Below are positions 1-21,003 of a stretch of DNA of 21,003 nt, piece after piece (the stretch's first letter is position 1; the number at the start of each line of letters is the position of its first letter). The stretch is from Promethearchaeota archaeon (lineage in GTDB: Archaea > Asgardarchaeota > Lokiarchaeia > Sigyniarchaeales > SOKP01). The notes beneath the pieces are model-generated. The model was not told where the DNA came from, searched no databases, and saw only the letters and a program-made list of their open reading frames with translations. A program made the translations under genes and the position numbers. The stretch lies in contig SDNY01000063.1 of assembly GCA_004524535.1 (NCBI GenBank), positions 1-21,003 of the forward strand, in the 5' to 3' direction.

Positions 1-103
1 AAGCTGAGGCGCCACACAGCACAAGGATTGATAGTATGAAGTGCGAAAAAATGTTAATTCCAAGAGTTTAAATAGTAACAATCTAAATTTTTACTAAATA
101 AGT

Positions 104-142
104 AAAAGAAAAAAAAATGGCTTATCACCTAAAAGGTGTTAA
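104..142 (-). terminator. Putative terminator of the ABC operon (short hairpin followed by oligo-T)
   Basis: CACCT-AAA-AGGTG hairpin at 126-138. On the minus strand it is followed by a T9 run (A109-117 on +) and T4, about 30-60 nt downstream of the permease stop. Confidence 0.35.
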
Positions 143-166
143 TACCAAAATTTAAAATTTGTTGAT

Positions 167-1150: not shown

Positions 1151-2127
1151 TTTTTATCACCCTTTTCTACATAAACTTCCATAAAAATATCTTGAAGTGA
1201 GATTTCAGGTATATGGAAGCTATATAATATTGCGTTATTTTCTAATATCACCTTAGGCATTTCCTGCTTAAGTTTGTCCGCATCTTGAGGTATTATTTGG
1301 ATTGTTCCATCTTCTTCTTTTATCCAGGTATTTTGGACATAATCTTTCTGTTTTAAAGATTTTAACATTTCCTTGTTCTTATTGGTGTCTAATTCATATG
1401 TATTGCCGATGTATTGTTGCTTAATATTTTTTAAAGTGTCCGAGATAACGATTGCACCTTTATTAATCATAGTTACCCTTTCACACATCTGTTCAATTTC
1501 AGATAAAATGTGGCTCGATACAAAAACACTTACTGTTTTAGAGATTTCCTTGATTTTATCAATTATATTTGCGCGTCCAATAGGATCTAAATTGGCCGTT
1601 GGCTCATCTAATATAAGGAGTTTTGGTTTGTGTATTAATGCTGCCGCTATACCAATTTTTTGTTTCATACCACCTGAATATTCACCGATAGGTCTAGTTC
1701 TATCATTAAAAATATCAAAATATACACATAATTCTTGAGCTCTCTTCCTTGCTTCCATCTTATTCAATCCTCCTAACTTTCCCATATAGATCAAATATTC
1801 TTCTCCTGTCATATTGTCGTAAAAAACTGGATCTTGAGGTAAAAATCCTATTAAGCGTCGTGCTTCTACGGTACCTGCTTTTTCGTTTCTGATTTTTGCT
1901 TCACCTGATGTTATAGCAAGGGCTCCAACTAACATATTCATTGTTGTTGTTTTACCAGCTCCATTAGGACCAAGAAAACCATGAATTCCAGGTTCTATGC
2001 GTAGATTTATTTTCTTTACAGCTTCAAATGCTTTGTCTTTTTTCCCATAGATTTTTTGAAGTTCATTACTCAAAATTTCATATTGAAATTCTGCCTCTTT
2101 CTCATATGCTTTCTTTCTTTTTATCAT
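1147..2127 (-). CDS. ABC transporter ATP-binding protein (ABC-2/drug-exporter type)
   Basis: Walker A GPNGAGKTT, Q-loop LPQ, signature YSGGM, Walker B LLILDEP, H-loop SSH. ATGA overlap with the upstream giant ORF at 2124-2127. Confidence 0.96.
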   Translation of the reverse strand: MIKRKKAYEKEAEFQYEILSNELQKIYGKKDKAFEAVKKINLRIEPGIHGFLGPNGAGKTTTMNMLVGALAITSGEAKIRNEKAGTVEARRLIGFLPQDPVFYDNMTGEEYLIYMGKLGGLNKMEARKRAQELCVYFDIFNDRTRPIGEYSGGMKQKIGIAAALIHKPKLLILDEPTANLDPIGRANIIDKIKEISKTVSVFVSSHILSEIEQMCERVTMINKGAIVISDTLKNIKQQYIGNTYELDTNKNKEMLKSLKQKDYVQNTWIKEEDGTIQIIPQDADKLKQEMPKVILENNAILYSFHIPEISLQDIFMEVYVEKGDKK

Positions 2128-5100
2128 ATCTGTATCTCCTCCATTTCTTTTTCTTTATCAATTAAAACGATTTTTGCTTTCCTCTTTTTATTTCGTTTAT
2201 AAAAGATAACAAGAGCGCTAATTACAACGGCTATTATTGCAGTTAATATGAACATCGAATAATCGGCTGGAACTGTGATAGTAACTTCGTCCACTGCGAT
2301 GACTATACCACTTTTATCATACATGAAAATTTGGATATTTTTTTCACCAGCTCCAAGAGATACTTTACATGACAAGGATTCTGTCCTATTATAAACATTT
2401 CCATCAATTATTAACTCGAAGAAATCGTAATCTGCATCCGTTTCCCATTCAATAGTGAATCTACTCGATTTCATCTTATCATCATCTTCGAGGTCAGAGA
2501 ATTCAACTTCAAATTCTGAATTTATACAAAAGAACGATTCACCACTTGCAAGAATAAATTCTGGTTTTCTATCACCTGTAAAATCAACGGTCCTATATAT
2601 TGCATCAACACTTCCTAAATTAAACCTATAGAGTAATTCTTGATTGTATATATCTAATAGATCTGTAATATGACCAGTTATATAAGCATCCTCTGAACGT
2701 GTATATGTATTATGGCTACAAATAATTTCATCCTTTCCATCTCCATTAAAATCACCTATGTTTTCGATAACATCGAAAAATTCATAAGTGACTTCTTCCC
2801 AGTCATACGTTTGTTCATATGGCTCTAACTCCCATGCTTCTTTATCAAAACCACTGTCATCGTCATCATCATCATCGTCATCATCATCATCAGCAATATC
2901 CCATTCTTCTGGTTCAATTTCTTCTAATTCAAAACCAGAACTATGAGCAATATCTAATGGTAAAATTGCTGCACCTTTTGAATATAAATTATCATCCCAA
3001 CCACTCTTAGAACATTGCGTTCCAATAATCCCATCAAGAATATTGTCTTCATTGAGATCACTTGTGTACGCAAATGGCAATGTAAACGTTCGTTCGTCTG
3101 GATCGATATCGCTTTGCCATTCCTCATACTTTTCGCTAATCTTACCATCTTCAATTATTTCTTCTAGATCAATGTCAACAATCGCATCGCCAGGATTAGT
3201 TGAAGATCCGCTAAAAATTTTAATACTTCGACCCCATTGGGAGGAAGCTAAATGTTCATAATAACCATCCCCATTTAAGTCAGCATACGAAAATTTAATT
3301 CTATAACCAATATAATTTGGTCTAAAATCGTTCCTTGCAGGCGTCCATCGACTTCTTCCGAGGGGATCTAAGTTATCAGGATTATTTATATAACAGACAA
3401 GAGATTGTGTATCGGGATTAATAATTTTTATTCCTTGGAAGGAATTAGAATCTGTTTGGTAATCACCTAAAATTAATCCTAACTTTCCATATTTATATGG
3501 AGTTGTACCTGGAATTTCATAAAAATCACTCCATTTATCTGTATAATTGAGAGACATTGCATCATTATAAGATATCGTCGGATCCGCATAATTATCATAG
3601 TTAGTTATTGAATTATCCCAATCAGCATCATCGATGTATTCATGAGAAAAATATCTACCACCATCTTCAAATGTACCACTTAAAATCCAACCGTTTGAGC
3701 TACTAATATCGTATATTGTAGCGCTAACACGACTAAAAGGAATTTTATCTCTACGATTATTAAGATCATAATCCCACTGAGCAGATATTCCCTGATTTTT
3801 CACATCGTAAAGAATTAATCTTGATGACCAATAAGGAGAACTATAAGATGTTTCATATCCGGCCACTACTAATATATCAAGATACTCATCTCCGGTACCA
3901 TTTATCACCTTGAAATCTTGAATTTTAAGATTTAAAATGTTATCTAATTTAGGTTCCCATTTCTCAGTATTCAAATTATACTTATACACATAATATTGAT
4001 CCCATTCATTACCGAATACGCCCCAGTAAAACATAGCAACCCCAAAGCTATCAATAGTAAGATTGAAAGGTTTTGTATAAGTAATATTGATACGTAATTG
4101 TAAAATATTGTTGGACATAAAGTATTCCGATATAAAAGATTCATTTGCGTAATCAAATTCCACACCATTATCTATACCCCATACTTTTGTCGGATTATAG
4201 GTTCCACGTTTAATGATATATAAGCTGTCATTTCTGAATGAGTTAGTTAGATTAAAACTCGTAGCATTATTTCTATATCCAAGAGGTTTTTCTGGGGAAG
4301 ATGTAGCATTGTTGTAATCTCCGTGCCAAGAATTGAAAGGTGCTTCTGGACCAATAGTTCGTTCACTTGCATTGATACTAAATGGAAGCCAATTATCCCC
4401 AGTAGCATTTTTAATCTCATATCTGAAATTATATACCCCATCCTCAGTGCGATTAGAATAAACATTACTTTGAATTTTTAAACCAGATAGTCTTTCTAAT
4501 TGACTAAGATCATGATAATCAAATCCAAATTCAACTGGAATAGTGAAATTAATAACAGTCTCCCAGATTGTTCCTTTATTCTCTGCTTCAATCGTATAAT
4601 TGCCCAACTCATATAAATAATTGACAACTAATTCATCGATCGATAAATCAAAACTTTTAGAATCTTCTGCATCAATTCTAATCCTTACTAAGTTATTATT
4701 ATCATCATCAACAAAATCAATGACCTCAGCCCATTCATCTTCTAAGAATTGCCATTGAACACTAGTCGAATTTATTGAATTCGGACTTATTCTTCTCCAA
4801 TCATGAAGAAATCCATCCCATATCGAAATGTCTATCTCATCAACTACTTTTGAGAGGTTTCCGATATAGTCTACGATGAGATATTTTGGAAGCCTTCCAA
4901 AATCTAATGATTGATTAAAAGACATTTCTATTGCTATTCTCTGTTTTCCTCCAGAAGAGACCGAATCAACAGTCCAAAAATTATTATCCTCTTTTTCAGT
5001 ATCTTCAGAGGAGCTAACTACAGCAGCACCGATTTTTATATCTGCCGTTGCGTCAGAGGAAGTTATAGTATGATTATCTCCGGTAAGTCCAAATAAATCG

Positions 5101-7466
5101 AAAAATGAATCGTTTGATTCTCCTGATTCAAGGCCAACTTCCGTTGCATGTGTTAAAGTAGAGTAAGGCCAATAATCATACCATAAAATATCACTCCAAT
5201 CATCAGGATCATGCCAACTATGTGGAATCTCACCATATGTTCTATGAGTTATATTTCCGGCATAAGAGTATAAACCAGTAGGGTTGACGAAGGTTCCACC
5301 AGTATAGCCGAACTCACGATGATATTTATAAGGGAAATCGACTAAAGGTCTTTCCCAGATTATTTCACCCTTTTTACCGCTAATTGCCAAGAATCTTGTA
5401 TAGGGTGCTAATAATGCTCTATTGATTGCTTCTTCCTTGTAATTATTTTCATAGTCCTCATAAGATGTTATTGAAACGGTTGATTGCCCAGTAAGATCTT
5501 TAATATAATCTTCGAGCTCCGGAGGATATGCACTCGGCATTACCCAGCCAGCATAATCATCAATATTATCATCATCAATATCCCCGATATTAACAACATC
5601 TCTAAATCCCTCGTAATAATTATAGGGGGGTGTAGCCTCCCATAATACGTCTCCTGTTGCACCACTAATGGTCAAGAATTCAGAGATCACAACTTCATCC
5701 TCAGCAGGGTCTCCATCCTGTATATTATACCTTTCCCATTCAGTAAGCCCAATTTCATCACCTTCATATTCTCTCCATGTTGGGTCAAAACTACTGATTC
5801 TCTGAAATAAGAAGTCCTTAACATCATCATCATCAATAGAATCAATCTGAGTCAGTTTTGTACCGCCCGATGCTTTAGATCTAGACCATAGAATTTGCTC
5901 ATTTTTCGTATCGATAAGCATATATTTACCATCATCACCAATAGCAAACAAATCATCAACGCCATCATCATTAGTGTCTCCTACATTTAATAAATACTTA
6001 CCAACAGTATCAGTTTCGTCAAGTTTATCTTCCCAATCATCTCCCGTCCTAACGACAGGGTATGATAGCGATGAATCCAAGCCGTAGGAAAAATAATCAT
6101 TATAGTAAATACCCTGATAATTTGAACCTTGACCTGTCCCAGCTTCAAAATTATTTCTAAAGAAATATGCTTTAATCACCGATTCATCATTAATGAATTC
6201 TGGATATGAAGCTGTATAAAGAATAGGATCGTAATCAAATTCACCTCCACTTATGTCTTCAATAGAATCACCATCAAAATTAAAAAGAACACCCTCAAAA
6301 TCGAGCTCATCTAAAGAATTAAAATCTTCATCAGAATATTCCAGATGGTACGCAATTGCCATATAATCTCGTGAACCGTCTCCATTTACATCAATGGTAT
6401 TTAATAATTTCATTCCAGCATGTTGAAAAATTCTCCGTTCACAGCTATAGGGGGAAGTTAATATATCATCAGTTGATCCCACTTCATCATCATATTCAGG
6501 TATTTCATAAAGTTCATAACTATCTATTTCTTCACCATCATCACCTGAGACAGCATATAAATATCCGTCATCTGTAGAAACTATTATATCATCACCATCT
6601 ATAATTATATCATCAATAGAGCTATCTACTTCTTTCTCTACCACCACTGCTAAGCTTCTAACTAATATCGTTGTTGAAGGAGTTATTTCTGAAGTCCATT
6701 CAAGTTCTCCATTATCTATATCAACTGCTACTAATTCTCCTGCTTCTGAACCTGCAATAATTTTATCATCTAATTGTTCAATGTTCCAGATATCATTAGT
6801 ACAAGCATCATCATTTACCCAGATTTCATCTCCATCATCTCCCTCTAAAGCAATAATCCTATTCCAAGAGGAAATGACAACATCTTGGCCGTCTTGATCA
6901 TCGATATCATCAACTACTTCAATATCCCATGTATAGGTAATAAATTCTCGAACAGCAAACGTCTCTGTATCATACCCTTTGACTCTTGGATCGTATTTCC
7001 AAATCTCACGCCCATCATCTGAATCAACCGCAATAACATTAGCGTGTTCTCTATCGTACACCACCAAAACTATATCTTTTAGCCCATCTCCTGAGATATC
7101 GTCAATTAAATCAAATGCAATTACTTCTCCAAATGTCATATAACTCATGCTTATGACACCATCCAATGTTAGTGTTGCTATTCCCCCGTCAGTTCCTATA
7201 ACAATGAATTCTTCTCCTCCAGCTTCAAAGGTAACCTTTTGAGGCTGCATAGTCGCTCCCTCACCTGGCATTCCACTTCCAAATCTCCATAATATTGAAT
7301 CAATATCTTTATCTCCATTTTCTTTGGGTTCCTCGTAGTAATAATCTATTAAAGGAGGCAATACAATCGCAAGAATTGGCACTGCTACTAATGCTGCTAT
7401 TATCCCCATTGATATTGGTTTCTTATGTTTTTTAACAAATGGTTTGAGCTTAGATTTAAATTCCAT
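2124..7466 (-). CDS. Giant acidic cell-surface protein with PQQ-like/FG-GAP-like beta-propeller repeats, N-terminal signal/TM and C-terminal TM anchor
   Basis: N-terminal basic stretch plus hydrophobic helix (ISMGIIAALVAVPILAIVLPPLI). Repeated blade motifs (AVDSDDGREIW, ALEGDDGDEIW, AVDIDNGELEW, TISGATGDVLW, AISGKKGEIIW) and about 10 DxxGDG-type loops (DISGDGLKD, DVNGDGSRD, DTNDDGVDD, DLNGDGYYE, DFNGDGKDE, DFTGDRKPE). C-terminal TM (MFILTAIIAVVISALVIFY) followed by KRNKKRKAK. Confidence 0.85.
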   Translation of the reverse strand: MEFKSKLKPFVKKHKKPISMGIIAALVAVPILAIVLPPLIDYYYEEPKENGDKDIDSILWRFGSGMPGEGATMQPQKVTFEAGGEEFIVIGTDGGIATLTLDGVISMSYMTFGEVIAFDLIDDISGDGLKDIVLVVYDREHANVIAVDSDDGREIWKYDPRVKGYDTETFAVREFITYTWDIEVVDDIDDQDGQDVVISSWNRIIALEGDDGDEIWVNDDACTNDIWNIEQLDDKIIAGSEAGELVAVDIDNGELEWTSEITPSTTILVRSLAVVVEKEVDSSIDDIIIDGDDIIVSTDDGYLYAVSGDDGEEIDSYELYEIPEYDDEVGSTDDILTSPYSCERRIFQHAGMKLLNTIDVNGDGSRDYMAIAYHLEYSDEDFNSLDELDFEGVLFNFDGDSIEDISGGEFDYDPILYTASYPEFINDESVIKAYFFRNNFEAGTGQGSNYQGIYYNDYFSYGLDSSLSYPVVRTGDDWEDKLDETDTVGKYLLNVGDTNDDGVDDLFAIGDDGKYMLIDTKNEQILWSRSKASGGTKLTQIDSIDDDDVKDFLFQRISSFDPTWREYEGDEIGLTEWERYNIQDGDPAEDEVVISEFLTISGATGDVLWEATPPYNYYEGFRDVVNIGDIDDDNIDDYAGWVMPSAYPPELEDYIKDLTGQSTVSITSYEDYENNYKEEAINRALLAPYTRFLAISGKKGEIIWERPLVDFPYKYHREFGYTGGTFVNPTGLYSYAGNITHRTYGEIPHSWHDPDDWSDILWYDYWPYSTLTHATEVGLESGESNDSFFDLFGLTGDNHTITSSDATADIKIGAAVVSSSEDTEKEDNNFWTVDSVSSGGKQRIAIEMSFNQSLDFGRLPKYLIVDYIGNLSKVVDEIDISIWDGFLHDWRRISPNSINSTSVQWQFLEDEWAEVIDFVDDDNNNLVRIRIDAEDSKSFDLSIDELVVNYLYELGNYTIEAENKGTIWETVINFTIPVEFGFDYHDLSQLERLSGLKIQSNVYSNRTEDGVYNFRYEIKNATGDNWLPFSINASERTIGPEAPFNSWHGDYNNATSSPEKPLGYRNNATSFNLTNSFRNDSLYIIKRGTYNPTKVWGIDNGVEFDYANESFISEYFMSNNILQLRINITYTKPFNLTIDSFGVAMFYWGVFGNEWDQYYVYKYNLNTEKWEPKLDNILNLKIQDFKVINGTGDEYLDILVVAGYETSYSSPYWSSRLILYDVKNQGISAQWDYDLNNRRDKIPFSRVSATIYDISSSNGWILSGTFEDGGRYFSHEYIDDADWDNSITNYDNYADPTISYNDAMSLNYTDKWSDFYEIPGTTPYKYGKLGLILGDYQTDSNSFQGIKIINPDTQSLVCYINNPDNLDPLGRSRWTPARNDFRPNYIGYRIKFSYADLNGDGYYEHLASSQWGRSIKIFSGSSTNPGDAIVDIDLEEIIEDGKISEKYEEWQSDIDPDERTFTLPFAYTSDLNEDNILDGIIGTQCSKSGWDDNLYSKGAAILPLDIAHSSGFELEEIEPEEWDIADDDDDDDDDDDDSGFDKEAWELEPYEQTYDWEEVTYEFFDVIENIGDFNGDGKDEIICSHNTYTRSEDAYITGHITDLLDIYNQELLYRFNLGSVDAIYRTVDFTGDRKPEFILASGESFFCINSEFEVEFSDLEDDDKMKSSRFTIEWETDADYDFFELIIDGNVYNRTESLSCKVSLGAGEKNIQIFMYDKSGIVIAVDEVTITVPADYSMFILTAIIAVVISALVIFYKRNKKRKAKIVLIDKEKEMEEIQI
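2856..2891 (-). repeat. In-frame GAT/GAC trinucleotide tract encoding 12 consecutive Asp
   Basis: + strand reads gtc atc gtc atc atc atc atc gtc atc atc atc atc; the protein reads IADDDDDDDDDDDDSG. Confidence 0.95.
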
Positions 7467-12479: not shown

Positions 12480-12639
12480 ATTTTTTACCTAATTTATCTA
12501 TTAACTTATTTCTTTTATTTAAAAAAAAAATTTAAATCTAATTGCAAAAGCTTTTTTCTATTAAATATTGATATATTATTGTGCGTAAAAGAAAATCATA
12601 AAAAAGAGTTCTATTATCTTATTGGCCTGGTTAATATTA

Positions 12640-12852
12640 TTATCTCGATTTAGTACGCCTTCGTGGAGATCTTCGTTTGGACGTTTGAGCCCTTTTTCCT
12701 TTTCTTTTAAATACCGTATAAGCACAGCGTCCACAACTCCAACGATCATAATGGTCTGCAAGGAAAAATCCCGCACCACATTTTGGGCATTGCCTATGTG
12801 TTCTAATTAATTTATTATCTTCAATTTTATAATATTTTGATGCATCAGTCAT
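12640..12852 (-). CDS. rps27ae: 30S ribosomal protein S27ae (eS31), no ubiquitin fusion
   Basis: YYKI...[25 protein letters not shown] zinc ribbon, in the canonical position between rps24e and kae1. Confidence 0.96.
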
Positions 12853-12878
12853 TTATAACTCACATTATTATTCTTTTA

Positions 12879-13235
12879 TTATTTATAATCAAAAAGATGT
12901 TTATAGCTTTCCTTCTTTTTTTTAAGTTTGTAAATATTGTCTCTTTGATCTTTTGGTAAATTCCGCACTTGTATGTGAAAAGGTTCAAAATATTGAAGTT
13001 CTTCTGCATTACCATATATATATACTTTTGCAATGTCTTGGGTTGCCCCAAAATGAGTTTGAATATCTTTTACTATAGTAAGTTTTTCGTTAGATGTTTT
13101 TAAAGCTGATATTTTTTTTTTTAATTCTAGTCTATTTGGAGTTCCTTTGGCAAAATGTTCAATTTTAACTTTTAATTCTATTCTATCAATTAATAGATTC
13201 TTTTTTTCTTCTAAAATTTCCACATCGAACGACAT
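12879..13235 (-). CDS. rps24e: 30S ribosomal protein S24e (eS24)
   Basis: EEKKNLLIDRIE, GTPNRLELKKKI, IQTHFG, AKVYIY and FEP motifs, plus gene context. Confidence 0.93.
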   Translation of the reverse strand: MSFDVEILEEKKNLLIDRIELKVKIEHFAKGTPNRLELKKKISALKTSNEKLTIVKDIQTHFGATQDIAKVYIYGNAEELQYFEPFHIQVRNLPKDQRDNIYKLKKKKESYKHLFDYK

Positions 13236-13318
13236 ACTTAAAGTTGAAAATTATGAATAAGAAATAAAATTTTGTATTTTATAATTAAAATAATAAAAAG
13301 AGAGAAAATTATAAAAAT

Positions 13319-13903
13319 TTAAAATTTTTCCATTAGATTTATATATTTTTTAACTTTATTTTGAATTTCTATATTTACATCTACAAGTACAATCCCTTCA
13401 GGAATGATAGTCCTTGCATCCGTAATTGGAGGTTGTCCGTAAAAAACAAAATTCTTAACATTCTCTTCCAATGGAAGTTTTAATATAAGAGGTAAGACAA
13501 GTAAATCCTCCTCTCCTTTTGTAATTATAAGTAAAGTTTTTTTTTTAGATTCGACAATAGTTTTTAATAGAGACCAGCTTTCTTTTTGAATAGTTCCCTC
13601 AGGATTTTCAAGTTCTATAATTTCCTCAAAATTCTCAGTTTTGATATAGATCTTCTTTCTCTGAGTTTTCTCATCAATGATACAAAGTTTAATAAACGAT
13701 TTTAGAAATTGATTCGCTAAGAAATCTTTAGATACAATATCTCCTACTATATAAAAGTTGATTGATAAATTAGATTTAATATAATTTTTGATAATATTTT
13801 CTACTTTTAGAAGAGTTTCTTCCCTCTTGCCAGATATTAATTTATCTAAAGGTTGAGCAAATTCATATCTTTTATCTTGGGGAATTCTTAAATTATATTC
13901 CAT
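13319..13903 (-). CDS. DUF359 family protein (archaeal GTP-dependent dephospho-CoA kinase)
   Basis: VGDIVS, IIDEKTQR, NPEGTI, GEEDLLVLP and FYGQP...EGIV motifs, in the conserved position after spt4. Start uncertain (ATG 13903, ATG 13909 or TTG 13912). Confidence 0.9.
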   Translation of the reverse strand: MEYNLRIPQDKRYEFAQPLDKLISGKREETLLKVENIIKNYIKSNLSINFYIVGDIVSKDFLANQFLKSFIKLCIIDEKTQRKKIYIKTENFEEIIELENPEGTIQKESWSLLKTIVESKKKTLLIITKGEEDLLVLPLILKLPLEENVKNFVFYGQPPITDARTIIPEGIVLVDVNIEIQNKVKKYINLMEKF

Positions 13904-13962
13904 CCACATCAATGTAATATTAAATATGAATTCTAATTTATAGACTAAAATCTTAGAAAATC

Positions 13963-14160
13963 TTAACGAACTCGTAGTGCATATTTGCCCGGCATTCCAA
14001 CTTTAAGGTATTCAGCGATTTTTGATTCGCTTGGTTTTATAATAACAACCTCTCCTGTAAAATCGTCACTTAATGTGTGAGTTTTGCATTTTGGGCAAAC
14101 TTGCTCGCTTTTAGTTATAATATGGCACGTTTTACATGCTTTTTCTTTAATAATAACCAC
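13963..14160 (-). CDS. spt4: Transcription elongation factor Spt4 (RpoE'')
   Basis: EKACKTCH...CPKC...LSDDFTGEVVII.P..SKIA....PGKYALRVR. The true start is most likely just after the rpoE' stop (GTG 14160 or ATT 14151), not the track's 14202. Confidence 0.95.
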   Translation of the reverse strand: MVIIKEKACKTCHIITKSEQVCPKCKTHTLSDDFTGEVVIIKPSESKIAEYLKVGMPGKYALRVR

Positions 14161-14164
14161 CCAT

Positions 14165-14743
14165 TTAGCTTGCCTTTTCAGCAAGTTCTGAAGAACTTTC
14201 AAGTTCTGAGATGTCAGATTGAATCCAATCTTCCTTCCCTAAGAACTTTTGTCGCATCGTTAATCCCAGTTTGCCCGAGCGGCCCATACCGAGAGAGACT
14301 GCTATAATTCTTGCTCTTACGGAGTCTTTTACTTCAAGGATTTTTCCTGTCTCCTTTCCTATAAATCTATTTCCTACTTGTTCGTATGATATGTAGTCAT
14401 CACATATTTGTGACACATGTACAAGCCCGTCGAGAGGACCCATTCTAATGAATGCGCCGAAGTCGACTATTTCTACTATGTCCCCTTCGATAACTTCCTG
14501 TAAAGATGGTTTAAAAGAAAGAATTGTAAATTCGACCTCATGGAAGGTATTTGGCTGACCCGGAATGATTATACCGGGACCAACAGTGAGTACATCGACG
14601 ATGGCAATAATAAAACCGTATTCTCTCGTAATAATTCCTTCATAGTCTTCACTGAGAATAATTCTTGCCGATACGGCTTTCTCTTGGCTAAATAAGAAAG
14701 GGGGAATCTCAATTTTTCCAGCTATTGTGTAGAGCTTAAACAT
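14165..14743 (-). CDS. rpoE: DNA-directed RNA polymerase subunit E' (Rpo7)
   Basis: IEIPP, EVIEGDIVEIVDFGAFIRMGPLDGLVHVSQI (S1 domain), VRARIIAVS and KLGLTMRQKFLGK. Confidence 0.98.
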   Translation of the reverse strand: MFKLYTIAGKIEIPPFLFSQEKAVSARIILSEDYEGIITREYGFIIAIVDVLTVGPGIIIPGQPNTFHEVEFTILSFKPSLQEVIEGDIVEIVDFGAFIRMGPLDGLVHVSQICDDYISYEQVGNRFIGKETGKILEVKDSVRARIIAVSLGMGRSGKLGLTMRQKFLGKEDWIQSDISELESSSELAEKAS

Positions 14744-14863
14744 AAGTTCATTTTAATAATAAATTTTAAATAATAATTTATTAAACGATATATACAATTA
14801 TTTATAATTAGTAAAGAAATTAATAGTTTACCTAAAGGAATAATAATTCTCACAATATTTTGT

Positions 14864-15457
14864 TTAAATGTTAAATGAATAAAATCTAAAAAAACTCTTT
14901 TGATTCTCATGAATTAAAATATTACCACATTCATCACAGATATCTTTTATTACATTTATTTCTTCTTCATCTAAATTTTCAAGAAATTCCTTAATTGGTA
15001 TACCTAACGCAATTTTTTCGTCCAAGTCTTTTCTAATATCTTCTTTTATACTTTCATGACATTTAGCGCAATATAAGGCTCCACAATGAGGGCACATAAA
15101 GGGAAGCGCCCCACAATTACTGCATAGAGTAGTTTTGGGCTGCCAGATAAGATTATCACTTTCACATTTAATACAATACCATCCTTTACTATGTGGAATG
15201 TATATCATATCTCGATCAGAATGGTTACAAATCGGACATTTACATATTGAAGCGTCTATTGCCCGTTCAAGTAATTGAATTTTTTTATAAAGTTTGTGAC
15301 CCTCTAAAGATAGTGCTATTTCTCCATCAATAGGATACCATATAGCTTTTAGAGTTCCCAATTTATCATAAGCAGCATTTAATATAATAATTCTTAAATT
15401 ATTTCTAATTCTCTTAAGCTGAGAATTATTAAGGATTATTTTTCTTCTCTTCTTCAT
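14864..15457 (-). CDS. Hypothetical Cys-rich (multi zinc-finger) protein; candidate immunity/accessory protein
   Basis: Six CxxC pairs: CPIC, CIKC, CSNC, CPHC, CAKC and CDEC. ATG start with a TATA-like TATATTTAAA about 30 nt upstream. The function is inference only. Confidence 0.7.
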   Translation of the reverse strand: MKKRRKIILNNSQLKRIRNNLRIIILNAAYDKLGTLKAIWYPIDGEIALSLEGHKLYKKIQLLERAIDASICKCPICNHSDRDMIYIPHSKGWYCIKCESDNLIWQPKTTLCSNCGALPFMCPHCGALYCAKCHESIKEDIRKDLDEKIALGIPIKEFLENLDEEEINVIKDICDECGNILIHENQKSFFRFYSFNI

Positions 15458-15509
15458 TATAAGATAAATGGAATAATTCTAATTTAAATATATAGACTTA
15501 CCTAAGAAA

Positions 15510-16547
15510 TTAAGAATTATTATCTCCAAGATAGTTATAAATTCTCTGTTGCTTAGGTAATAAATATTGAGCATATGATGGAAATACAGGAATAAATCTT
15601 GGATGAAAATCGACCCATTCTTCAATCACCTTAGAAATTTCGGTATCTAATTCTTTTGCAAGAGTTATTTTTTGTTGCTCAGTAAGGTAAATTACTCTTT
15701 TTCCACTTTTCAGATTTTTAGAGTAAAAGCGTTCAATAAAATAATTTCTACCAGTACGACCATCTGTTAGATATTTAATAATAAACCTACCTGCTCCATA
15801 CTTTTCGATATAATCGACTCTACTTAAAAATTCATTCCAACCATTAGGATCATTTTTATAATAATCTGGTATAGATCGTTTACCTTCAATCCTATGCTTT
15901 AATAATTCTAAAATCAATACTGTATTTCCTTCATGTGCTTTATGGTCTCGATTCATTGGAAGTGTCAATCTATTTGGATCATTTGATGCTTTATCATTTT
16001 CGAAAAGATGATTGCGTTGATATGTATACCATTGGGATTGTTTTAATTTTCGAAAAGCCATTGGATCCATTGTCTTCAAGTTAACAACATCAACTAAAAG
16101 ATCTCTAATAACTAGTATTGTACAATGAGCTTTAATTGTACTTTCATCAAACCATTCAGAGGAGTATTCGGAATTTAGCTGTGAAAGAGATTTTAGATAT
16201 GCATGATACCTTGCAAGGTAAACTTTCGCTTTTTTTGAGTATTGATTATCAAAATTAATTAATCTATATGCATTTTTGATGGTATTAATATGAATTTTAT
16301 CATGTTTCTTTAAATTCTCTTGAAACAATGACTTATAATCGGTATTAGATACATCTTTACTGAACTGCATCAAATCATATTCCTTCCCTTGATCTTTCAT
16401 ATGTTTGGCAATTGCGAGATATGAATAAAATATAACATTAAATTCAGTTAATTTTTCCTCTGATAATATTTCACGATTAATCATTGTCTGTACAATTAAT
16501 CTGTGACAACGTGATTTAAGCTCATCAAGAGTATTAGGTTGTGTCAA
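15510..16547 (-). CDS. Hypothetical protein with an HNH-like nuclease motif; possibly the orphaned C-terminus of the upstream gene
   Basis: 345-codon ORF in AT-rich DNA containing RNHLFENDKASNDPNRLTLPMNRDHKAHE (H...K.sN...L.....H..H). Weak TTG start 2 nt after the upstream stop. Confidence 0.6.
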   Translation of the reverse strand: MTQPNTLDELKSRCHRLIVQTMINREILSEEKLTEFNVIFYSYLAIAKHMKDQGKEYDLMQFSKDVSNTDYKSLFQENLKKHDKIHINTIKNAYRLINFDNQYSKKAKVYLARYHAYLKSLSQLNSEYSSEWFDESTIKAHCTILVIRDLLVDVVNLKTMDPMAFRKLKQSQWYTYQRNHLFENDKASNDPNRLTLPMNRDHKAHEGNTVLILELLKHRIEGKRSIPDYYKNDPNGWNEFLSRVDYIEKYGAGRFIIKYLTDGRTGRNYFIERFYSKNLKSGKRVIYLTEQQKITLAKELDTEISKVIEEWVDFHPRFIPVFPSYAQYLLPKQQRIYNYLGDNNS

Positions 16548-16549
16548 TT

Positions 16550-19500
16550 CTAATAATTCCCTATTGTCATAAATTCAAATCCTTCAAAAGGCTCTAAATT
16601 AATTATGGTAGTGGAATTTGTATATACTTCAAAAAGAGTTTCATAAAACGCTTCTTTTTTATCCATACCTTGTGCCCAAATACGAATATTATGAATGCCT
16701 ATTGTATATCCATCTATTGAAAAAACTATATCTTCATCAGGGATATAAGGTCCTTGATCTACTATAACATCATCAATAGATACATTAAAAAAACCTGAAT
16801 AGTCTGAGGAAATACTAAAATTTAGCAAATTACCTGTTGTCATAAATTGATAGTTAGGAATCTCATTTATATTAATAAGTGTTATTGAATTAGAGAACAC
16901 AATAAATTCAGCAGAAGCCGTTCCAACCTTATAATCTTCTCCAATCGCCCAGATGGTGATATTATGAGGGCCTATCCCATATCCATCTATACAATAATTA
17001 ATGAGTTCCCCACTTATATAATCATCCTCGAGTTTTAGCTCCGTATCAATAAAGAGCTTAAAATAATCCGGATACCGTGAACTAATATTAAAACTTACAA
17101 AATGTCCAAGAGACATAAATTCATAATCATTAAGCTCTATTATTTCAACTTGAGTAATTGACAGAGAATATACGGTAAATGAAGATCCACATGTAGATAC
17201 CTTGCCTATACTATCATTAGCCCAAATTAAAATGTGATGCTCTCCAACATCATATCCATCAATTGAGCTGGTTATTATATCTCCCCCAAACTCGTAGCAC
17301 CCTTGATAAACTAAAAAATTATCTATGAAGATTTTATAAGATTCTGGAAAGGAAGCATTAATTTTAATGAGAGCAGTATGTTCAGTTGTTCTAAACTCAT
17401 AATTAGGGAGAGAAATTATATCTATATAAATAAAGGATTTACCAAATACTTGAAATTGAACCATAGAAGAAGTCTCTTTTTCATCGGAACTATTTGCCCA
17501 TATTAAGACAGTGTGTATTCCAACTTTATATCCGTCTAAACTGTATATTATAGATTCTCCATTTAGATATTTACCCGAATCAACCAAGATATTGTCAATC
17601 TTCAATTCATAGCTATCAGGATAATCTGAAAAGATACTAAAATTTAGAATGTTGCCTGTACTGTTATAGAGAAAATTATTGATATGATTTATTTTAATAA
17701 TCGTTTCTGAATCTGAATAGACTGAAAGATATGCCTCAATTATTCCATCCTTCCCATCTAGAGCTGTTGCAATTATAGAGACATTATGAACTCCGACTTT
17801 ATACCCATCAATTGAAAAATTAAATATTTCACCATCATAATAGTGACCAGAGCTTATTTTATTACCATCAATTGTAAAATTATATTGATCAGGATATTGC
17901 GAAAATATTTGAAATGAAATATTATTTCCTTCGGACATAAATTTATAATTATTAAGCTCTAATATATTAACTATTGTAACAGAATCTGAGAAGACCGCAA
18001 ATATAGCAGAAGTCTCACAATAATTATCATCTTTAGAAGTAGCATTAATTTTCAAAATATAATCACCTAATTGAGCTGTATAGTTGTCTAAGGAATAGAT
18101 ATGCGTTGTCTCTCCATAGTTAAAATTAGTGGAGTTTGCAAGTTGGTTATTAATCCAAATAAAATAGGTTCCGGAATAGCTTGAGCTTATATTAAATTTA
18201 AGATAATTTTCTGTACTTAAGAATTTACAATTTTCAAGATGTTCAATATTTATTATAAGGGAAGAATCACTTAATTCATATAAATAAAGCTCACATACCC
18301 ATAATAGAATATCTTGATTAAGGTCCTTTCTTTCAGTTGTTAAATAAAATTCCTTGTACTCATTATCATGAATATCATTAATTAAATCATAAATTAGATC
18401 AAAATTAAATTCAATGTCCAGGTCTAGAAGCCCATCAATTTTCCAAGAATAGTATATATTCTTAATATTTGAGTAATCAAGATTATTTTCTATGAAATTC
18501 TTAATTTTCTGAGTATTTAGTGAAAACATATCGGTCTCGTTTAGAATATAGATCATATAATAAGTAGCCTCAAGAGAGTCTTCAATTTTGTTGCTGTATT
18601 CAAATTTAGAATATATCTCGGTCGGGGTCTCAATAATATTATTAGAAACATAAGAGTATAATGCTGCTGTATCGACACCAAGACTTTCATAATCGCCTAG
18701 ACCTTTATAGTCAGAAATTAATTTTAAGATTTTTATAGCCCAATAAGAGTACTTAAAACGAACATCGTTGTCTTTCCATTCTTCAGGAACAGAATGAGTA
18801 TCCCACCAAGGATCATTCCAATACGAATCTGCCATAAACCCTCCAAAATTACTTTCAGCATTGTTTAGATATTGACTGTTTACTACCTCAGAAATCACAT
18901 CCTCAAGATCATACTCCCCATCAAAGTCATCGAGTTTGGAGGTTCTCTCAAGGATATCTAATGCCTTGTATAATGTCATTAAAGAAGAATATCGATTTGG
19001 AAAAGAGTATTCAATAGGATAGGCCCTAAATTGTCCATGTTTCGGAAAGGGCGAGACCATCAAAGGGTTGGTTTCATGCATAGAAACAGACGTAAATTCT
19101 GGATTGGGATACTTTTCAGTTGCATCATCGATAAAATCATAAATCATTTGAATATCCAAATCTCCGACTCTCCCATAGAGGTCAAAGGAATTCACAATAG
19201 AATATAGCAAACTTAAACTCATATAATCCTCAGAAAGCGCCGAAAATCCCTCTCCCGACATATAATTTGTCATTGAATTTGCGATTTCATTTTTATTTCC
19301 AGATGTCAATTGAGAGATCTCACCCGTATGTACCAAGCTTCTAATTACTTGGTAAGAATCAATAAGTTCGTGGTATCCAGGTATATTGCATTGCTCCCAA
19401 CTACCCATTGAGTTTCTGTTGTCAAAGAGATAATCTAGAACTGCGCTCCTATTAATACCAGCATACCCATAAATGTCAGACAATTCTAGCCCAACAGCAG

Positions 19501-20548
19501 ATGCCGGAACGCTAAGTTGTACGGTATAAGCAGGATAAGTACAGTACTGGAAAAAATCGCCACCTTCATTATAAAGCGCACCTAGATAGTCAAGGAAATC
19601 ATTTACTCTAATAGTATCCTCCATTCCAAATAACTCTAGACTCTTGACGCAATAATAGGACGAAAAGATATTTGGCTCACTAGCAAAAGCTTCTAAACTA
19701 TCAAAACTGTTAGCTCCTTTGTCAAGATCATTCCAGAACCCTCCAAATTGCCAACCGCCAGATTCTTGTAGAGAATTAATATAATCAATGATATTGGAGA
19801 TTTGGGTTTCGTAGCCTACCCAGGTATCCATAAGAAGATCTAAGGTAGTTAACGCAAAATAGGTATTATCCATTGTAGAGATTCTATATTCGTTATCTGG
19901 GCTTGTAGCGTAAGGTCTTCCTATAAAACCCCCCGTTATCGGATTATAGCAGCTCCATATAAAATCAATTGATTCTTGCTTATCAATTAATCCTAGTTGT
20001 CCTAACATCTCAAGCGTAAGAATCGCATAACAATTGACTTCCAGCAAAGTGGTAAAAGGATAATACTCATACCGTGTACTGAAATCAATGCTTAGATATC
20101 TCTCGGCGTAAGCGTCTATGAATGTATACGTACTTGAGTTATAATGTGACATTATAAAATCTGTTATTTCAGTTTGATTGACTGTATTCAACCGATTAAT
20201 CGCATGAAGTAGGTAGACCGCATAATAAGTCGCTTGTAGGGAAGATTTATAGATTTGAGGGAAATATCCCTTAGAAGAATATTCGTTCATTTTATTATCC
20301 AGAGTATTGTTAATCAAGTCAGAATTGCTAGAGGAGGCTGAATAAGGAGGAGAATCATTGTTAATGATGTATTTATCTATCGGAACATCCCCTTCTTCAA
20401 GAACATATAGACTAGGATTTTTCTTCTGCTTATTTATATCATTATTATCTTGACTTGATGTTATCTCGGTTAAAAAGACTCCCAGAATAATAATTGATAA
20501 AAATAAAATAAAGAATTTGATCCTATAATTTTTTTCTCTAAAGACCAT
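16550..20548 (-). CDS. Exported protein with prenyltransferase/squalene-cyclase-like (alpha/alpha barrel) repeats and tandem Ig-like repeats; appears C-terminally truncated
   Basis: N-terminal signal/TM (IKFFILFLSIIILGVFL). Repeats of the type GGF....(S/T)YYA..L..L (QATYYAVYLL; GGFIGRP..NTYFALTTL; GGFWND..SSYYCVKSL; GGFMAD..YSYWAIKIL; EATYYMIYIL), then beta-rich repeats. No C-terminal anchor. Confidence 0.8.
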   Translation of the reverse strand: MVFREKNYRIKFFILFLSIIILGVFLTEITSSQDNNDINKQKKNPSLYVLEEGDVPIDKYIINNDSPPYSASSSNSDLINNTLDNKMNEYSSKGYFPQIYKSSLQATYYAVYLLHAINRLNTVNQTEITDFIMSHYNSSTYTFIDAYAERYLSIDFSTRYEYYPFTTLLEVNCYAILTLEMLGQLGLIDKQESIDFIWSCYNPITGGFIGRPYATSPDNEYRISTMDNTYFALTTLDLLMDTWVGYETQISNIIDYINSLQESGGWQFGGFWNDLDKGANSFDSLEAFASEPNIFSSYYCVKSLELFGMEDTIRVNDFLDYLGALYNEGGDFFQYCTYPAYTVQLSVPASAVGLELSDIYGYAGINRSAVLDYLFDNRNSMGSWEQCNIPGYHELIDSYQVIRSLVHTGEISQLTSGNKNEIANSMTNYMSGEGFSALSEDYMSLSLLYSIVNSFDLYGRVGDLDIQMIYDFIDDATEKYPNPEFTSVSMHETNPLMVSPFPKHGQFRAYPIEYSFPNRYSSLMTLYKALDILERTSKLDDFDGEYDLEDVISEVVNSQYLNNAESNFGGFMADSYWNDPWWDTHSVPEEWKDNDVRFKYSYWAIKILKLISDYKGLGDYESLGVDTAALYSYVSNNIIETPTEIYSKFEYSNKIEDSLEATYYMIYILNETDMFSLNTQKIKNFIENNLDYSNIKNIYYSWKIDGLLDLDIEFNFDLIYDLINDIHDNEYKEFYLTTERKDLNQDILLWVCELYLYELSDSSLIINIEHLENCKFLSTENYLKFNISSSYSGTYFIWINNQLANSTNFNYGETTHIYSLDNYTAQLGDYILKINATSKDDNYCETSAIFAVFSDSVTIVNILELNNYKFMSEGNNISFQIFSQYPDQYNFTIDGNKISSGHYYDGEIFNFSIDGYKVGVHNVSIIATALDGKDGIIEAYLSVYSDSETIIKINHINNFLYNSTGNILNFSIFSDYPDSYELKIDNILVDSGKYLNGESIIYSLDGYKVGIHTVLIWANSSDEKETSSMVQFQVFGKSFIYIDIISLPNYEFRTTEHTALIKINASFPESYKIFIDNFLVYQGCYEFGGDIITSSIDGYDVGEHHILIWANDSIGKVSTCGSSFTVYSLSITQVEIIELNDYEFMSLGHFVSFNISSRYPDYFKLFIDTELKLEDDYISGELINYCIDGYGIGPHNITIWAIGEDYKVGTASAEFIVFSNSITLININEIPNYQFMTTGNLLNFSISSDYSGFFNVSIDDVIVDQGPYIPDEDIVFSIDGYTIGIHNIRIWAQGMDKKEAFYETLFEVYTNSTTIINLEPFEGFEFMTIGNY
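16553..18270 (-). repeat. Six complete ~91-93-aa Ig-like protein repeats plus the first 22 aa of a seventh
   Basis: Consensus S.T.I.I..L.NY.F...GN...F.I.S.YPD.Y...ID......G.Y..G.....SIDGY.VG.H.I.IWA...D.K......F.V(F/Y)S recurs six times. The seventh (NSTTIINLEPFEGFEFMTIGNY) ends at TAG. Confidence 0.9.
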
Positions 20549-20628
20549 GTAAAAAAAAACTGATGAGTATATTTAAAAGAAAAAAAAAAGAATCATTATC
20601 AACATATAGGTTTTAGGGGAGAGGAACA

Positions 20629-20656
20629 CATCTAGATGAGTATTATCTATATAAAT
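20629..20656 (-). promoter_or_regulatory. Putative TATA box for the 1332-aa gene with an adjacent 10-bp palindrome
   Basis: Minus-strand TTTATATA at 20655-20648. Perfect palindrome CATCTAGATG at 20629-20638, between the TATA box and the expected TSS. Confidence 0.3.
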
Positions 20657-20724
20657 GAATAAAAAAGGAAAAAAGGATAAAAATTTTATATTATGATATT
20701 TTACATTATATTGGCAATATAAAA

Positions 20725-20844
20725 GACTCCTGCCGCACCCTGGATTTTTGTCTTTTGGTTAGTGCACTTAGGTGCGCTATGATTTTGCCCCACTTCTCCT
20801 TAGAGATTTTACGACCTTATCGTTAGGTCTCGCGGGCAGGAGTC
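20725..20844 (+). ncRNA. Candidate structured non-coding RNA (unclassified)
   Basis: GC-rich island in AT-rich intergenic DNA. Perfect 10-bp closing stem GACTCCTGCC/GGCAGGAGTC, internal hairpins at 20760-20779, 20795-20806 and 20813-20829, and a T-rich tract from 20848. G-U pairs favour the + strand. Confidence 0.5.
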
Positions 20845-21003
20845 ACCTTTTTAAAATTTTCTATTTTCAAGTTCCATTATTGACTTTTCATTTATATGTT
20901 ATTAAAAGTTATAGATACATGGTACATCAAAAAAAATTCGATTATTTTTAGAAATTTAGATTGATTGATAAACGACGAGTTTTTTTAATAATTTAACAGC
21001 AAA

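Follow-up and report, generated by a model that had tools for sequence, protein, structure and literature searches.

An apparent deletion scar and a conserved gene pair in DNA inserted at the rpoE' gene of a Sigyniarchaeales archaeon

The window analysed here is a 21,003-nucleotide stretch of DNA from a Promethearchaeota archaeon (Asgardarchaeota; Lokiarchaeia; Sigyniarchaeales; SOKP01; GenBank assembly GCA_004524535.1, contig SDNY01000063.1, positions 1 to 21,003 of the forward strand), and is one entire contig of a metagenome-assembled genome of 198 contigs with a completeness estimate of 99.11% and a contamination estimate of 4.41%. Its genes of interest are three co-oriented open reading frames (ORFs), ORF1, ORF2 and ORF3, that lie next to rpoE', the gene for RNA polymerase subunit E'/Rpb7. 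An earlier reading of the letters alone (the sequence-only reading) had taken ORF1 and ORF2 for parts of one surface-displayed, contact-dependent toxin and ORF3 for its immunity protein. All three genes were present with the features described for them; the locus itself is not a polymorphic toxin system. We consider it probable that the locus combines a truncated ORF1, a truncated ORF2, a relic copy of an ORF2/ORF3 module and a Campbell-type insertion at rpoE'. In what follows genomes are labelled G (the window's own being G000), contigs of that genome C (the window being C157), loci L and library proteins P. The features are as follows.

16550-20548, minus strand: ORF1, 1332 aa, a C-terminally truncated surface protein.
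15510-16547, minus strand: ORF2, 345 aa, the C-terminal part of a member of a cytoplasmic protein family of about 500-600 aa.
14864-15457, minus strand: ORF3, 197 aa, conserved partner of ORF2 with a predicted zinc ribbon.
16546-16552, no strand: breakpoint between ORF1 and ORF2 (probable deletion scar), where the TAG stop of ORF1 arises.
15930-16028, minus strand: HNH-like motif, ORF2 residues 174-206, as placed by alignment columns, the structural model and fold matches.
15158-15250, minus strand: core of the ORF3 zinc ribbon, residues 70-100, with invariant Cys pairs and modelled strands at 84-87 and 92-95.
14165-14743, minus strand: rpoE', intact, with Pfam domains SHS2_Rpb7-N and S1.
14611-14745, no strand: left copy of a 135-bp direct repeat (5' end of rpoE'), located by blastn and by three-way alignment with genome G008.
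14746-21003, no strand: inserted non-syntenic DNA carrying ORF3, ORF2 and ORF1; DNA identity with G008 stops at 14745.

ORF1 opens with a hydrophobic segment (signal or anchor), followed by a region that matched the Pfam family Prenyltrans (PF00432) with an E-value of 6.4e-15 and 55.8 bits against a cut-off of 26.5, and in four stretches at a lenient threshold. From about residue 760 the protein consists of repeats of 91-92 aa each, six of them complete, and it ends 25 residues into a seventh (...MTIGNY, then TAG). The last 70 residues contained no hydrophobic anchor, the best 19-residue hydropathy being 0.87, compared with 1.8-2.6 in 11 of 12 relatives. The sequence-only description of a signal or transmembrane segment, an alpha/alpha barrel and an Ig-like stalk that stops in mid-repeat was therefore borne out by the Pfam match, the repeats and the hydropathy. 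ORF1 belongs to a common family of surface proteins: among 60 genomes drawn from the GTDB family of the window (G000 counted), 47 had relatives, often several copies per genome, with the first ~755 residues conserved and open frames of 780-2014 aa. Eleven of the 12 relatives end in a transmembrane helix and a basic tail, where the toxin proposal had called for variable toxin C-termini; L046 lacks such a helix, as does the window ORF1 itself. In L051 (1896 aa), L052 (same genus, cut at a contig end) and L053 (2006 aa) the Ig-like repeats of ORF1 are followed by a hydrophobic helix and a short basic tail. L052 was 49% identical to ORF1 and collinear with it over 913 aa (ORF1 residues 434-1331), and ran 318 residues beyond the end of ORF1, a stretch made up of a further three repeats, a linker, and then anchor and tail. 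By this comparison ORF1 is short of about 318 C-terminal residues, the membrane anchor among them, and the family has the order signal/anchor, prenyltransferase-like toroid, Ig-like repeat stalk, C-terminal anchor and short basic tail; the toroid domain may be non-enzymatic. No homologue of ORF2 or ORF3 was found in 14 ORF1-family loci by tblastn and by family hidden Markov models run on six-frame translations.

ORF2 starts at a TTG codon two bases past the ORF1 stop, in a different frame, and is basic (pI 9.2) and mostly helical in its model, so that the earlier description of an abutting, helical, basic gene with a poor start also held. Its three closest database homologues (579-593 aa) covered 97-99% of ORF2 at 41-43% identity and aligned to it solely by their C-terminal ~340 residues. 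When ORF2 was compared with a family profile built from seven members, the match began at position 191-194 of 531, so that about 190 N-terminal positions are gone. On these alignments ORF2 is without roughly its N-terminal third, and without its own start and promoter. The relatives have N-terminal parts of their own, 190-250 residues long, with no signal peptide visible in the sequences read. The ORFs at 14 full-length loci in other genomes or contigs (440-594 aa), and at four metagenome loci of the subfamily closest to the window ORF2 (581-660 aa), were all free-standing.

An exhaustive profile search of 1.84 billion representative proteins returned 79 members of the ORF2 family at E <= 0.001, and in none of the 79 was an ORF1-like part fused to the ORF2 relative. 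Two of them (P0015 and P0050) exceeded 1000 aa and had N-terminal parts that were unlike ORF1 and held no Pfam domain. In P0015 (1099 aa) this was a 770-residue extension with hydrophobic stretches and no Pfam match, the sole sign of a larger fused form. Pfam searches of 30 of the 79 gave nothing above threshold and just two sub-threshold matches. Near the ORF2 relatives, no ORF1 homologue was present in 34 distinct loci outside the window's contig. Of 399 genomes taken from across the phylum, 26 matched the family profile, and every one of these belongs to the GTDB family of the window; with G000 set aside, the counts were 25 of 133 genomes of that family versus 0 of 265 others. No usable match to the ORF2 family was obtained in Pfam, PADLOC, PHROGs or NCBIfam, the best weak profile matches for ORF2 and ORF3 being phrog_13662 (E 8.5e-4, 41 residues) and TFIIE_beta (E 0.012, below the cut-off). 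A scan of viral contigs for ORF2 gave no match, which is weak evidence since the scan needs exact peptide words.

The homology of ORF1 to intact repeats and the homology of ORF2 to its family both stop at about 16550. The join is bridged by a Logan contig from run X1 that spans 14700-16593; this contig, 1943 nt long and at depth 46, shows 0 differences from the window, and it is an independent assembly, not independent data. There were no X1 contigs over 16594-18200, a gap that is uninformative. From run X2, another sample of the same study, two contigs that were 94-97% identical to the ORF1 end part from the window sequence at 16546 and 16552. Their loose ends, when translated by eye in the ORF1 frame, continue the ORF1 repeat (..TIHSDYPDY; LNFTIYSDYP), with a Leu codon in place of the TAG of the window. 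Elsewhere in the bin the missing tail of ORF1 was not found, the ORF1 query having one match in the genome, and neither was the missing head of ORF2, for which the full-length P0002 matched only C157 and a distant paralogue on C56. Both truncations are shown by the comparisons with relatives and the join is present in an independent assembly of the reads; the mid-repeat stop of ORF1 and the poor start of ORF2 are the two sides of one breakpoint. In the simplest reading a single deletion between two co-oriented genes would have joined ORF1 to ORF2, cutting both and creating the ORF1 stop. A programmed -1 frameshift that would fuse ORF1 to ORF2 was considered and rejected: the ORF2 frame is open for only 9 codons upstream of the TTG, and no heptamer of the form X XXY YYZ was seen by eye in those 27 nt.

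Two other accounts of the join were weighed against the deletion. The idea that a single exported polymorphic toxin (stalk plus HNH toxin) left both ORF1 and ORF2 as its remnants, with ORF3 as the immunity protein, is hardly credible in our view. It can draw on the co-orientation and abutment of the three genes, on the conservation of the HNH-like motif in ORF2 and on the position of ORF3 as a conserved neighbour and predicted ORF2 binder, all described below or above, yet the relatives of ORF1 are anchor-ended with no added domain that matches ORF2, the relatives of ORF2 are free-standing with no ORF1 relative adjacent, and the two genes lie in different frames with no slippery heptamer seen by eye. 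Since an ORF2-type domain fused to an ORF1 stalk was found in none of the 79 representatives, the 34 ORF2 loci or the 14 ORF1 loci, the proposed derivation from one surface-displayed toxin had to be given up; anchor-ended ORF1 homologues that never fuse to ORF2-like domains were what the sequence-only reading itself had named as its refutation. An assembly artefact, that is, a chimera inside the ORF1 repeats or at 16550 such that neither gene is truncated in the cell, is highly improbable: the sequence does come from a metagenome bin of many contigs and the join does fall in a repeat-rich gene, but the X1 contig crosses the join without a difference, and the missing parts of ORF1 and ORF2 are not to be found elsewhere in a bin estimated to be almost complete.

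Downstream of the three ORFs lie rpoE', DUF359, S24e, Kae1 and Bud32, which are ordinary archaeal informational genes by their Pfam matches. The rpoE' protein was 96% identical to that of the closest relative, G008, and G008 DNA was 91% identical to window 12567-14745, after which it diverges exactly at the rpoE' start. Upstream of rpoE' G008 carries Roadblock/LC7 and other genes, which in the window's genome sit on C45 past the repeat. The second copy of the 135-bp repeat was located at C45:3769-3903 and was 90% identical to window 14611-14745. As to the flanks, the left one matches G008 in the window and the right one matches G008 in C45, and the two are contiguous in G008. In the three-way alignment both copies were identical over the first half of the repeat, and over the second half C45 followed G008 while the window differed. 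This hybrid pattern of single-nucleotide polymorphisms (SNPs), taken with the outer flanks that match G008, is the pattern of a single crossover between a chromosome and a circular DNA with a homologous stretch. No DNA match to window 14746-21003 was found in G008, G002, G005 or G001 apart from a short multi-copy repeat. The site is empty in the close relative G008 and direct repeats of the target stand at both ends; window 14746-21003 is a block of foreign DNA that went in at the 5' end of rpoE'. The insertion runs off the contig end and would continue to C45:1-3768. According to the proposed course of events, a single crossover of the Campbell type would have brought the foreign DNA in at the 5' end of rpoE', leaving the 135-bp repeat and rebuilding an intact rpoE'; an enzyme presumably stood behind the insertion.

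The C45 end of the insertion (1-3903, L062) contains a small ORF resembling a winged helix-turn-helix protein, a PCNA-like gene, a Cys/His-rich ORF of 152 aa and an ORF of 207 aa, followed by the 135-bp rpoE' remnant. The PCNA-like gene encodes 393 aa with an N-terminal extension (PF00705, E 1.8e-10). Pieces of C45:1-3768 recur on more than 10 other contigs of the same genome at 73-95% identity; among four relatives they were absent from three, and G008 had one 102-nt match. On C73 a gene for an Fe-S protein with a CCG domain lies near a second copy, 89% identical, of the C45 gene next to the rpoE' remnant. On C188 (L069, 4978-6684) a gene with leucine-rich repeats (LRR; 311 aa) and a 106-aa ORF stand in the main ribosomal operon between S17 and L14, and part of C45 is 90% identical to DNA that overlaps this 106-aa ORF; a mobile cassette appears to have inserted into the ribosomal-protein operon there. 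Within the window, a G+C-rich element of ~130-200 nt lies in AT-rich DNA at 20665-20864, upstream of the ORF1 start, and has complementary ends (GGTGACTCCTGCC ... GGCAGGAGTC, minus strand). Further copies, 73-86% identical, were found: on four other contigs of the same genome, one each in G008, G005 and G002, and five in G001. A search of the window against Rfam at gathering thresholds gave no family, for this element or otherwise, and the element may represent a small structured RNA or else a miniature mobile element.

A number of findings count against the composite reading of scar, relic and insertion. The X1 contig that bridges the join reaches just 45 nt into ORF1, and its run is probably the source sample. 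ORF2 keeps an open frame of 345 codons, and its start abuts the ORF1 stop, which makes translation from the ORF1 transcript possible. Short forms of ORF2 (287-408 aa) occur in the library, where cuts at contig ends are possible, and one of them, P0011, has Asn at position 179. With respect to the insertion, the two copies of the repeat are on different contigs of a bin that has some estimated contamination, and no integrase or recombinase was present among the ORFs of window 14746-21003 and C45:1-3768, which together make up 10 kb of an insertion whose middle is unassembled.

The third gene, ORF3, contains 13 Cys and six CxxC pairs. Its conserved part consists of a helical hairpin (12-70) followed by a C4 zinc ribbon (C74, C77, C95 and C98), as judged from the alignment and from a model with a predicted local distance difference test score (pLDDT) of 75.2, and the residues invariant in 20 sequences were R22, S70, C74, C77, W93, C95 and C98. 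The window ORF3 alone among these 20 members carries an additional Cys-rich insert at 112-133 with three further CxxC pairs, which lies partly in the predicted ORF2 interface, and the CxxC of its C-terminal tail (174-177) is absent from all 19 relatives. The sequence-only reading was right that the protein is small and Cys-rich; the TATA-like element also attributed to the gene exists as a string ~30-38 nt upstream of the ATG, which at ~30% G+C is indistinguishable from chance. A word-indexed protein search gave no homologue of ORF3, and homologues came from neighbouring loci, as with the gene downstream of the ORF2 homologue in L007 (genome G018; 45% identity over 116 aa, E 6e-32). Profile libraries gave only zinc-finger models below their cut-offs for ORF3, and a wide fold search gave generic helical hairpins only (Z < 8).

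A homologue of ORF3 stands directly downstream of ORF2 and on the same strand in 11 of the 14 full-length ORF2 loci. In a more distant ORF2-like branch, with genes of 354-733 aa that keep the R-H-H ... H motif, an ORF3 homologue is the next gene in 6 of 6 loci. The co-occurrence that the immunity proposal implied is therefore real, and by these neighbourhoods ORF2 and ORF3 form a genuine conserved two-gene module that is confined, as far as searched, to one Asgard GTDB family. Complex modelling, which the earlier reading had suggested, likewise predicted binding. The ORF2-ORF3 complex reached an ipSAE interface score of 0.61 (runs 0.61, 0.69 and 0.29), compared with 0.00 for the best of 3 controls, and so passed the mark; the runs agreed in at least 37% of contacts and the pLDDT of the partner was at least 65. 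In calibration, 58 of 80 solved complexes scored this high, as did 2 of 110 mismatched pairs; these figures are rough only, as custom alignments were used. The predicted interface comprises ORF2 residues 133-138, 159-177, 199-204 (with the invariant H202) and 235-294, and ORF3 residues 34-65, 75-76, 89-90 and 103-140. The model thus supports binding of ORF2 and ORF3, and the interface it predicts falls on the region of the conserved H-H...N...H...E motif of ORF2.

A role of ORF3 as inhibitor has to be set against loci in which ORF2 does without it. The paralogue on C56 of the window's own genome (L013, 594 aa) has only a 44-codon relic of ORF3, the intact ORF2 homologues L010 and L016 have no ORF3 beside them, and in the closest-subfamily metagenome loci ORF3 stands beside 0 of 4 intact ORF2 homologues. 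With seven intact ORF2 homologues lacking an intact ORF3, the latter is no obligatory antidote, and these seven copies are the strongest argument against an antidote role. In a type II toxin-antitoxin system an intact toxin keeps an intact partner, which L010, L016, L013 and the four metagenome loci do not.

The AlphaFold2 model of ORF2 (pLDDT 89.5, predicted template-modelling score 0.71) comprises a helical bundle resembling helix-turn-helix (HTH) domains (~28-126), an HNH-like domain (~132-250) and a helical tail. For residues 28-126 the best matches were HTH-type DNA-binding domains and generic four-helix bundles at Z 5-7.2, a range that is non-specific for helical folds. The motif reads [FY]xR-H/N-H ... 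NDKxSxD-x-N-R-L-x-L ... H-x3-E, with spacings of 11-12, 10 and 4 residues along H-H ... N ... H ... E. In a 34-row alignment its columns were conserved as R178 in 32/32, H180 in 32/32, N192 in 27/32, H202 in 34/34 and E206 in 32/34, and D185 and K186 also belong to it. Position 179 is His in 29 of 32 sequences, and Asn in the window copy as well as in P0011. In the model, residues 176-204 form two short strands (176-180 and 194-198) and a helix (199-204). The roles of catalytic His, structural Asn and metal-binding His are assigned here to ORF2 residues by presumed analogy.

When residues 132-250 were compared with solved structures by VIA-align, the Cap5 HNH chain 7rwk_B aligned with Z 5.2 and a root-mean-square deviation (rmsd) of 3.1 over 92 residues, and in the wide search it was the only match restricted to the motif region among the 50 matches listed. 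In a second look at Foldseek candidates, 16 of the 18 rows on the C-terminal part of ORF2 were Cap5 or Cas9 chains (Z 2.8-4.5), with 8fmh_C (Cap5) at Z 4.5 and the Cas9 chains at Z 2.8-4.1, four of these being titled as isolated HNH domains; the aligned ranges of the Sa and Sp Cas9 chains we take to be their HNH domains. Evidence of the opposite tendency came from the level of these scores, Z 2.8-5.2 being a range common for unrelated pairs, from Foldseek, which returned nothing at E <= 0.001 for the ORF2 model (nor for that of ORF3), and from the HNH models of Pfam, none of which matched ORF2 even at E up to 10. The ORF2 family profile, when run against the sequences of the Protein Data Bank (PDB), had as its best match an unrelated DUF4827 protein (E 0.27). 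The ESM Atlas was uninformative for ORF2, its own model having a pLDDT of 0.40 and all rows a TM score of 0.34 or lower. An HNH-like His-Me finger in ORF2 is accordingly described here as likely but not established. The motif picked out in the sequence-only reading was no chance match: it is conserved family-wide, and the Cap5 and Cas9 alignments lend it weak structural support. A tyrosine recombinase, considered for ORF2 because the gene adjoins the repeat, was rejected; Cre appeared at a Foldseek E of 2.6, and there was no integrase among the matches listed.

Elsewhere in the sampled genomes the pair is found in several settings and in several states of decay. ORF2 fragments with internal stops occurred in at least six genomes; ORF3 stands beside ORF2 fragments in L024 and L038, and both genes are in pieces in L026. 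In two other genera the pair is convergent to the S13-S4-S11 genes, with the end of ORF3 ~40 bp from the 3' end of rps11. On the far side of the pair at this site there is a small divergent winged-helix gene, and then a variable region with HEPN, GIY-YIG, IS630-type transposase, LRR and SUFU-TPR genes. The same site also holds relics, with ORF2 in fragments and ORF3 whole in some and split in two in others. Five genomes were tested for a further copy of the rps11 3' end that might serve as an attachment (att) site, and all 5 lacked one. The ORF2-type gene of the closest subfamily adjoins the end of the S-adenosylhomocysteine (SAH) hydrolase gene, near the genes for Lrp, archaeosine TGT and TFB. 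The SAH hydrolase gene beside the ORF2 homologue in the metagenome locus L065 (9657-10958) reads as two ORFs of 313 and 114 aa, which could reflect a frameshift, a sequencing error or a disruption near the 3' end. A gene of 113-129 aa lies divergently upstream of the ORF2 homologue in L054 (3306-3695), L056, L057, L011, L012, L014, L015, L019 and L022, and for one copy of it HTH_34 gave a weak winged-helix match that fell short of the cut-off (E 5.8e-4). This small winged-helix-like gene could belong to the module as its third member; the window lacks it.

With modest confidence, we infer that the pair is a DNA-directed His-Me nuclease gated by a clamping partner, within a selfish or conflict module. 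The large protein would bind DNA through its helical and HTH parts and cut it at the HNH-like site, and the zinc-ribbon partner would clamp over the catalytic face with its hairpin and ribbon, gating or blocking the cut. The module would act as a selfish or conflict element of an addiction, defence or homing kind, first gained and later decaying, and the window copy would be in the course of such decay, with the N-terminal third of its large gene gone, Asn in place of the first His of the H-H pair, and ORF3 persisting. As to what the pair does, nuclease plus gate, in addiction or defence, is a tentative assignment held at clearly less than even confidence, and a homing or insertion function is unlikely. 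The probability left over by these and by the regulator discussed next falls to some other role.

That ORF2 and ORF3 might be a non-catalytic pair of DNA-binding regulators, with the motif binding a structural metal or nucleic acid and ORF3 as a co-factor, is quite unlikely. The helical region of ORF2 does match regulators of the HTH type (ChiS DNA-binding domain, Z 7.0; CapH N-terminal domain, Z 5.4; ComR and PlcR, Z 4.0), a small winged-helix gene is divergent in many loci and no HNH profile matches ORF2, but the invariant His, Asn, His and Glu on a strand-strand-helix unit, together with the consistent if weak Cap5 and Cas9 matches, fit a catalytic site better, and frequent decay with a patchy presence (25/133 genomes) would be unusual for a housekeeping regulator. 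It is improbable, too, that ORF2 and ORF3 are themselves the insertion machinery, an HNH-type homing or recombination module aimed at the ends of informational genes that brought the block into rpoE'. DNA-binding modules combined with an HNH-type domain are the build of free-standing HNH homing endonucleases, and the positions of the pair are suggestive: 119 bp separate the end of ORF3 from the repeat at the rpoE' start, the rps11 site in two genera is occupied by copies that are intact, truncated or relic, and the closest-subfamily gene adjoins the end of the SAH hydrolase gene. These positions are outweighed by the lack of a second rps11 end in the five genomes, of a recombinase fold and of any integrase match of the kind looked for above, by the truncation of the window copy of ORF2, and by the fact that the C45 pieces of the insertion that are multi-copy in the genome exclude ORF2 and ORF3. 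The further version in which the family is an undescribed zinc-clamp-gated nuclease module that homes to, or recombines at, the rpoE' 5', rps11 3' and SAH hydrolase 3' ends and carries cargo is decidedly improbable; if true, it would make the pair a new kind of insertion machinery and not a passive passenger.

Two further features of the window lie apart from these genes. A minus-strand ORF of 1780 aa at 2124-7466, with an ABC transporter pair downstream, contains PQQ/beta-propeller repeats (PF13360, E 2.8e-16) and is another large surface-type protein. Window positions 1-167 match the end of contig C65 (L067, 12386-12553) at 89% identity in reverse orientation, and this repeat at the contig ends probably broke the assembly.

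The proposed new class of archaeal contact-dependent toxin is not upheld by these results, and a false lead is removed. For sequence-only reading in general they advise caution, in that a deletion scar is a simpler explanation than a split fusion for a stop in mid-repeat beside a poor start. What the locus offers instead is an unannotated pair in which a His-Me-like site is conserved and the partner is predicted to be clamp-like. Found in one Asgard family only and often decayed, the pair is a reasonable candidate conflict or selfish module in a lineage about whose mobile elements and defence systems little is known. It also offers a clean example of insertion, in which DNA entered an essential RNA polymerase subunit gene at its 5' end and duplicated the gene start. 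No description of the pair was found in the accessible portions of the literature on Asgard polymorphic toxins or Hodarchaeales HNH proteins. Aloposons, giant-gene transposons that integrate at tRNA genes, are unrelated to the window locus as far as the available part of their description goes (PMC8813620).

In its outward arrangement the locus resembles polymorphic toxin systems such as CDI (CdiA/CdiI), Rhs/YD-repeat proteins and MafB, in which an exported repeat stalk ends in a variable toxin and an immunity gene stands next to it: a repeat-rich surface protein, an HNH-like protein and a small predicted binder are encoded in the same orientation. It differs from them in that the HNH-like protein was never part of the stalk protein in the data searched, that the stalk family is anchor-ended, and that the adjacency of ORF1 and ORF2 is unique to the window and would stem from a deletion.

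Toxin-antitoxin pairs offer a second comparison. MqsR/MqsA has its toxin gene in front of that for an antitoxin with a zinc-binding domain. The ORF2/ORF3 pair is similar in having the larger gene first and the small zinc-binding partner second, in the predicted binding, and in the persistence of the partner beside broken genes (L024 and L038), whereas its large protein has ~500-600 aa with DNA-binding-like modules and seven intact copies are without an intact partner; the fold searches with ORF3 found no similarity to MqsA. With the HNH/His-Me finger nucleases (Cap5 and Cas9; 7rwk, 8fmh, 6jdv and 5vgb) ORF2 shares a strand pair and helix bearing H-H...N...H...E, and the Cap5 and Cas9 HNH domains were, among the matches listed, the only solved folds that aligned to ORF2 132-250. 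Unlike them, ORF2 has no sequence profile match, reaches Z values of just 2.8-5.2, and embeds the domain in a larger helical protein without annotation. A precedent for a small protein seated on an HNH domain is provided by PDB entries titled as the NmeCas9 HNH domain with the anti-CRISPR proteins AcrIIC1 or AcrIIC3.

The insertion, finally, compares with Campbell-type integration as it occurs at tRNA genes, in which a circular element goes into a gene end and brings its own substitute for that end. It departs from that scheme in that the target is the 5' end of a protein-coding gene for an RNA polymerase subunit and that the two ends lie on different contigs, and it agrees with it in the 135-bp repeat of the target end, the hybrid SNPs, the regenerated gene and the empty site in the closest relative.

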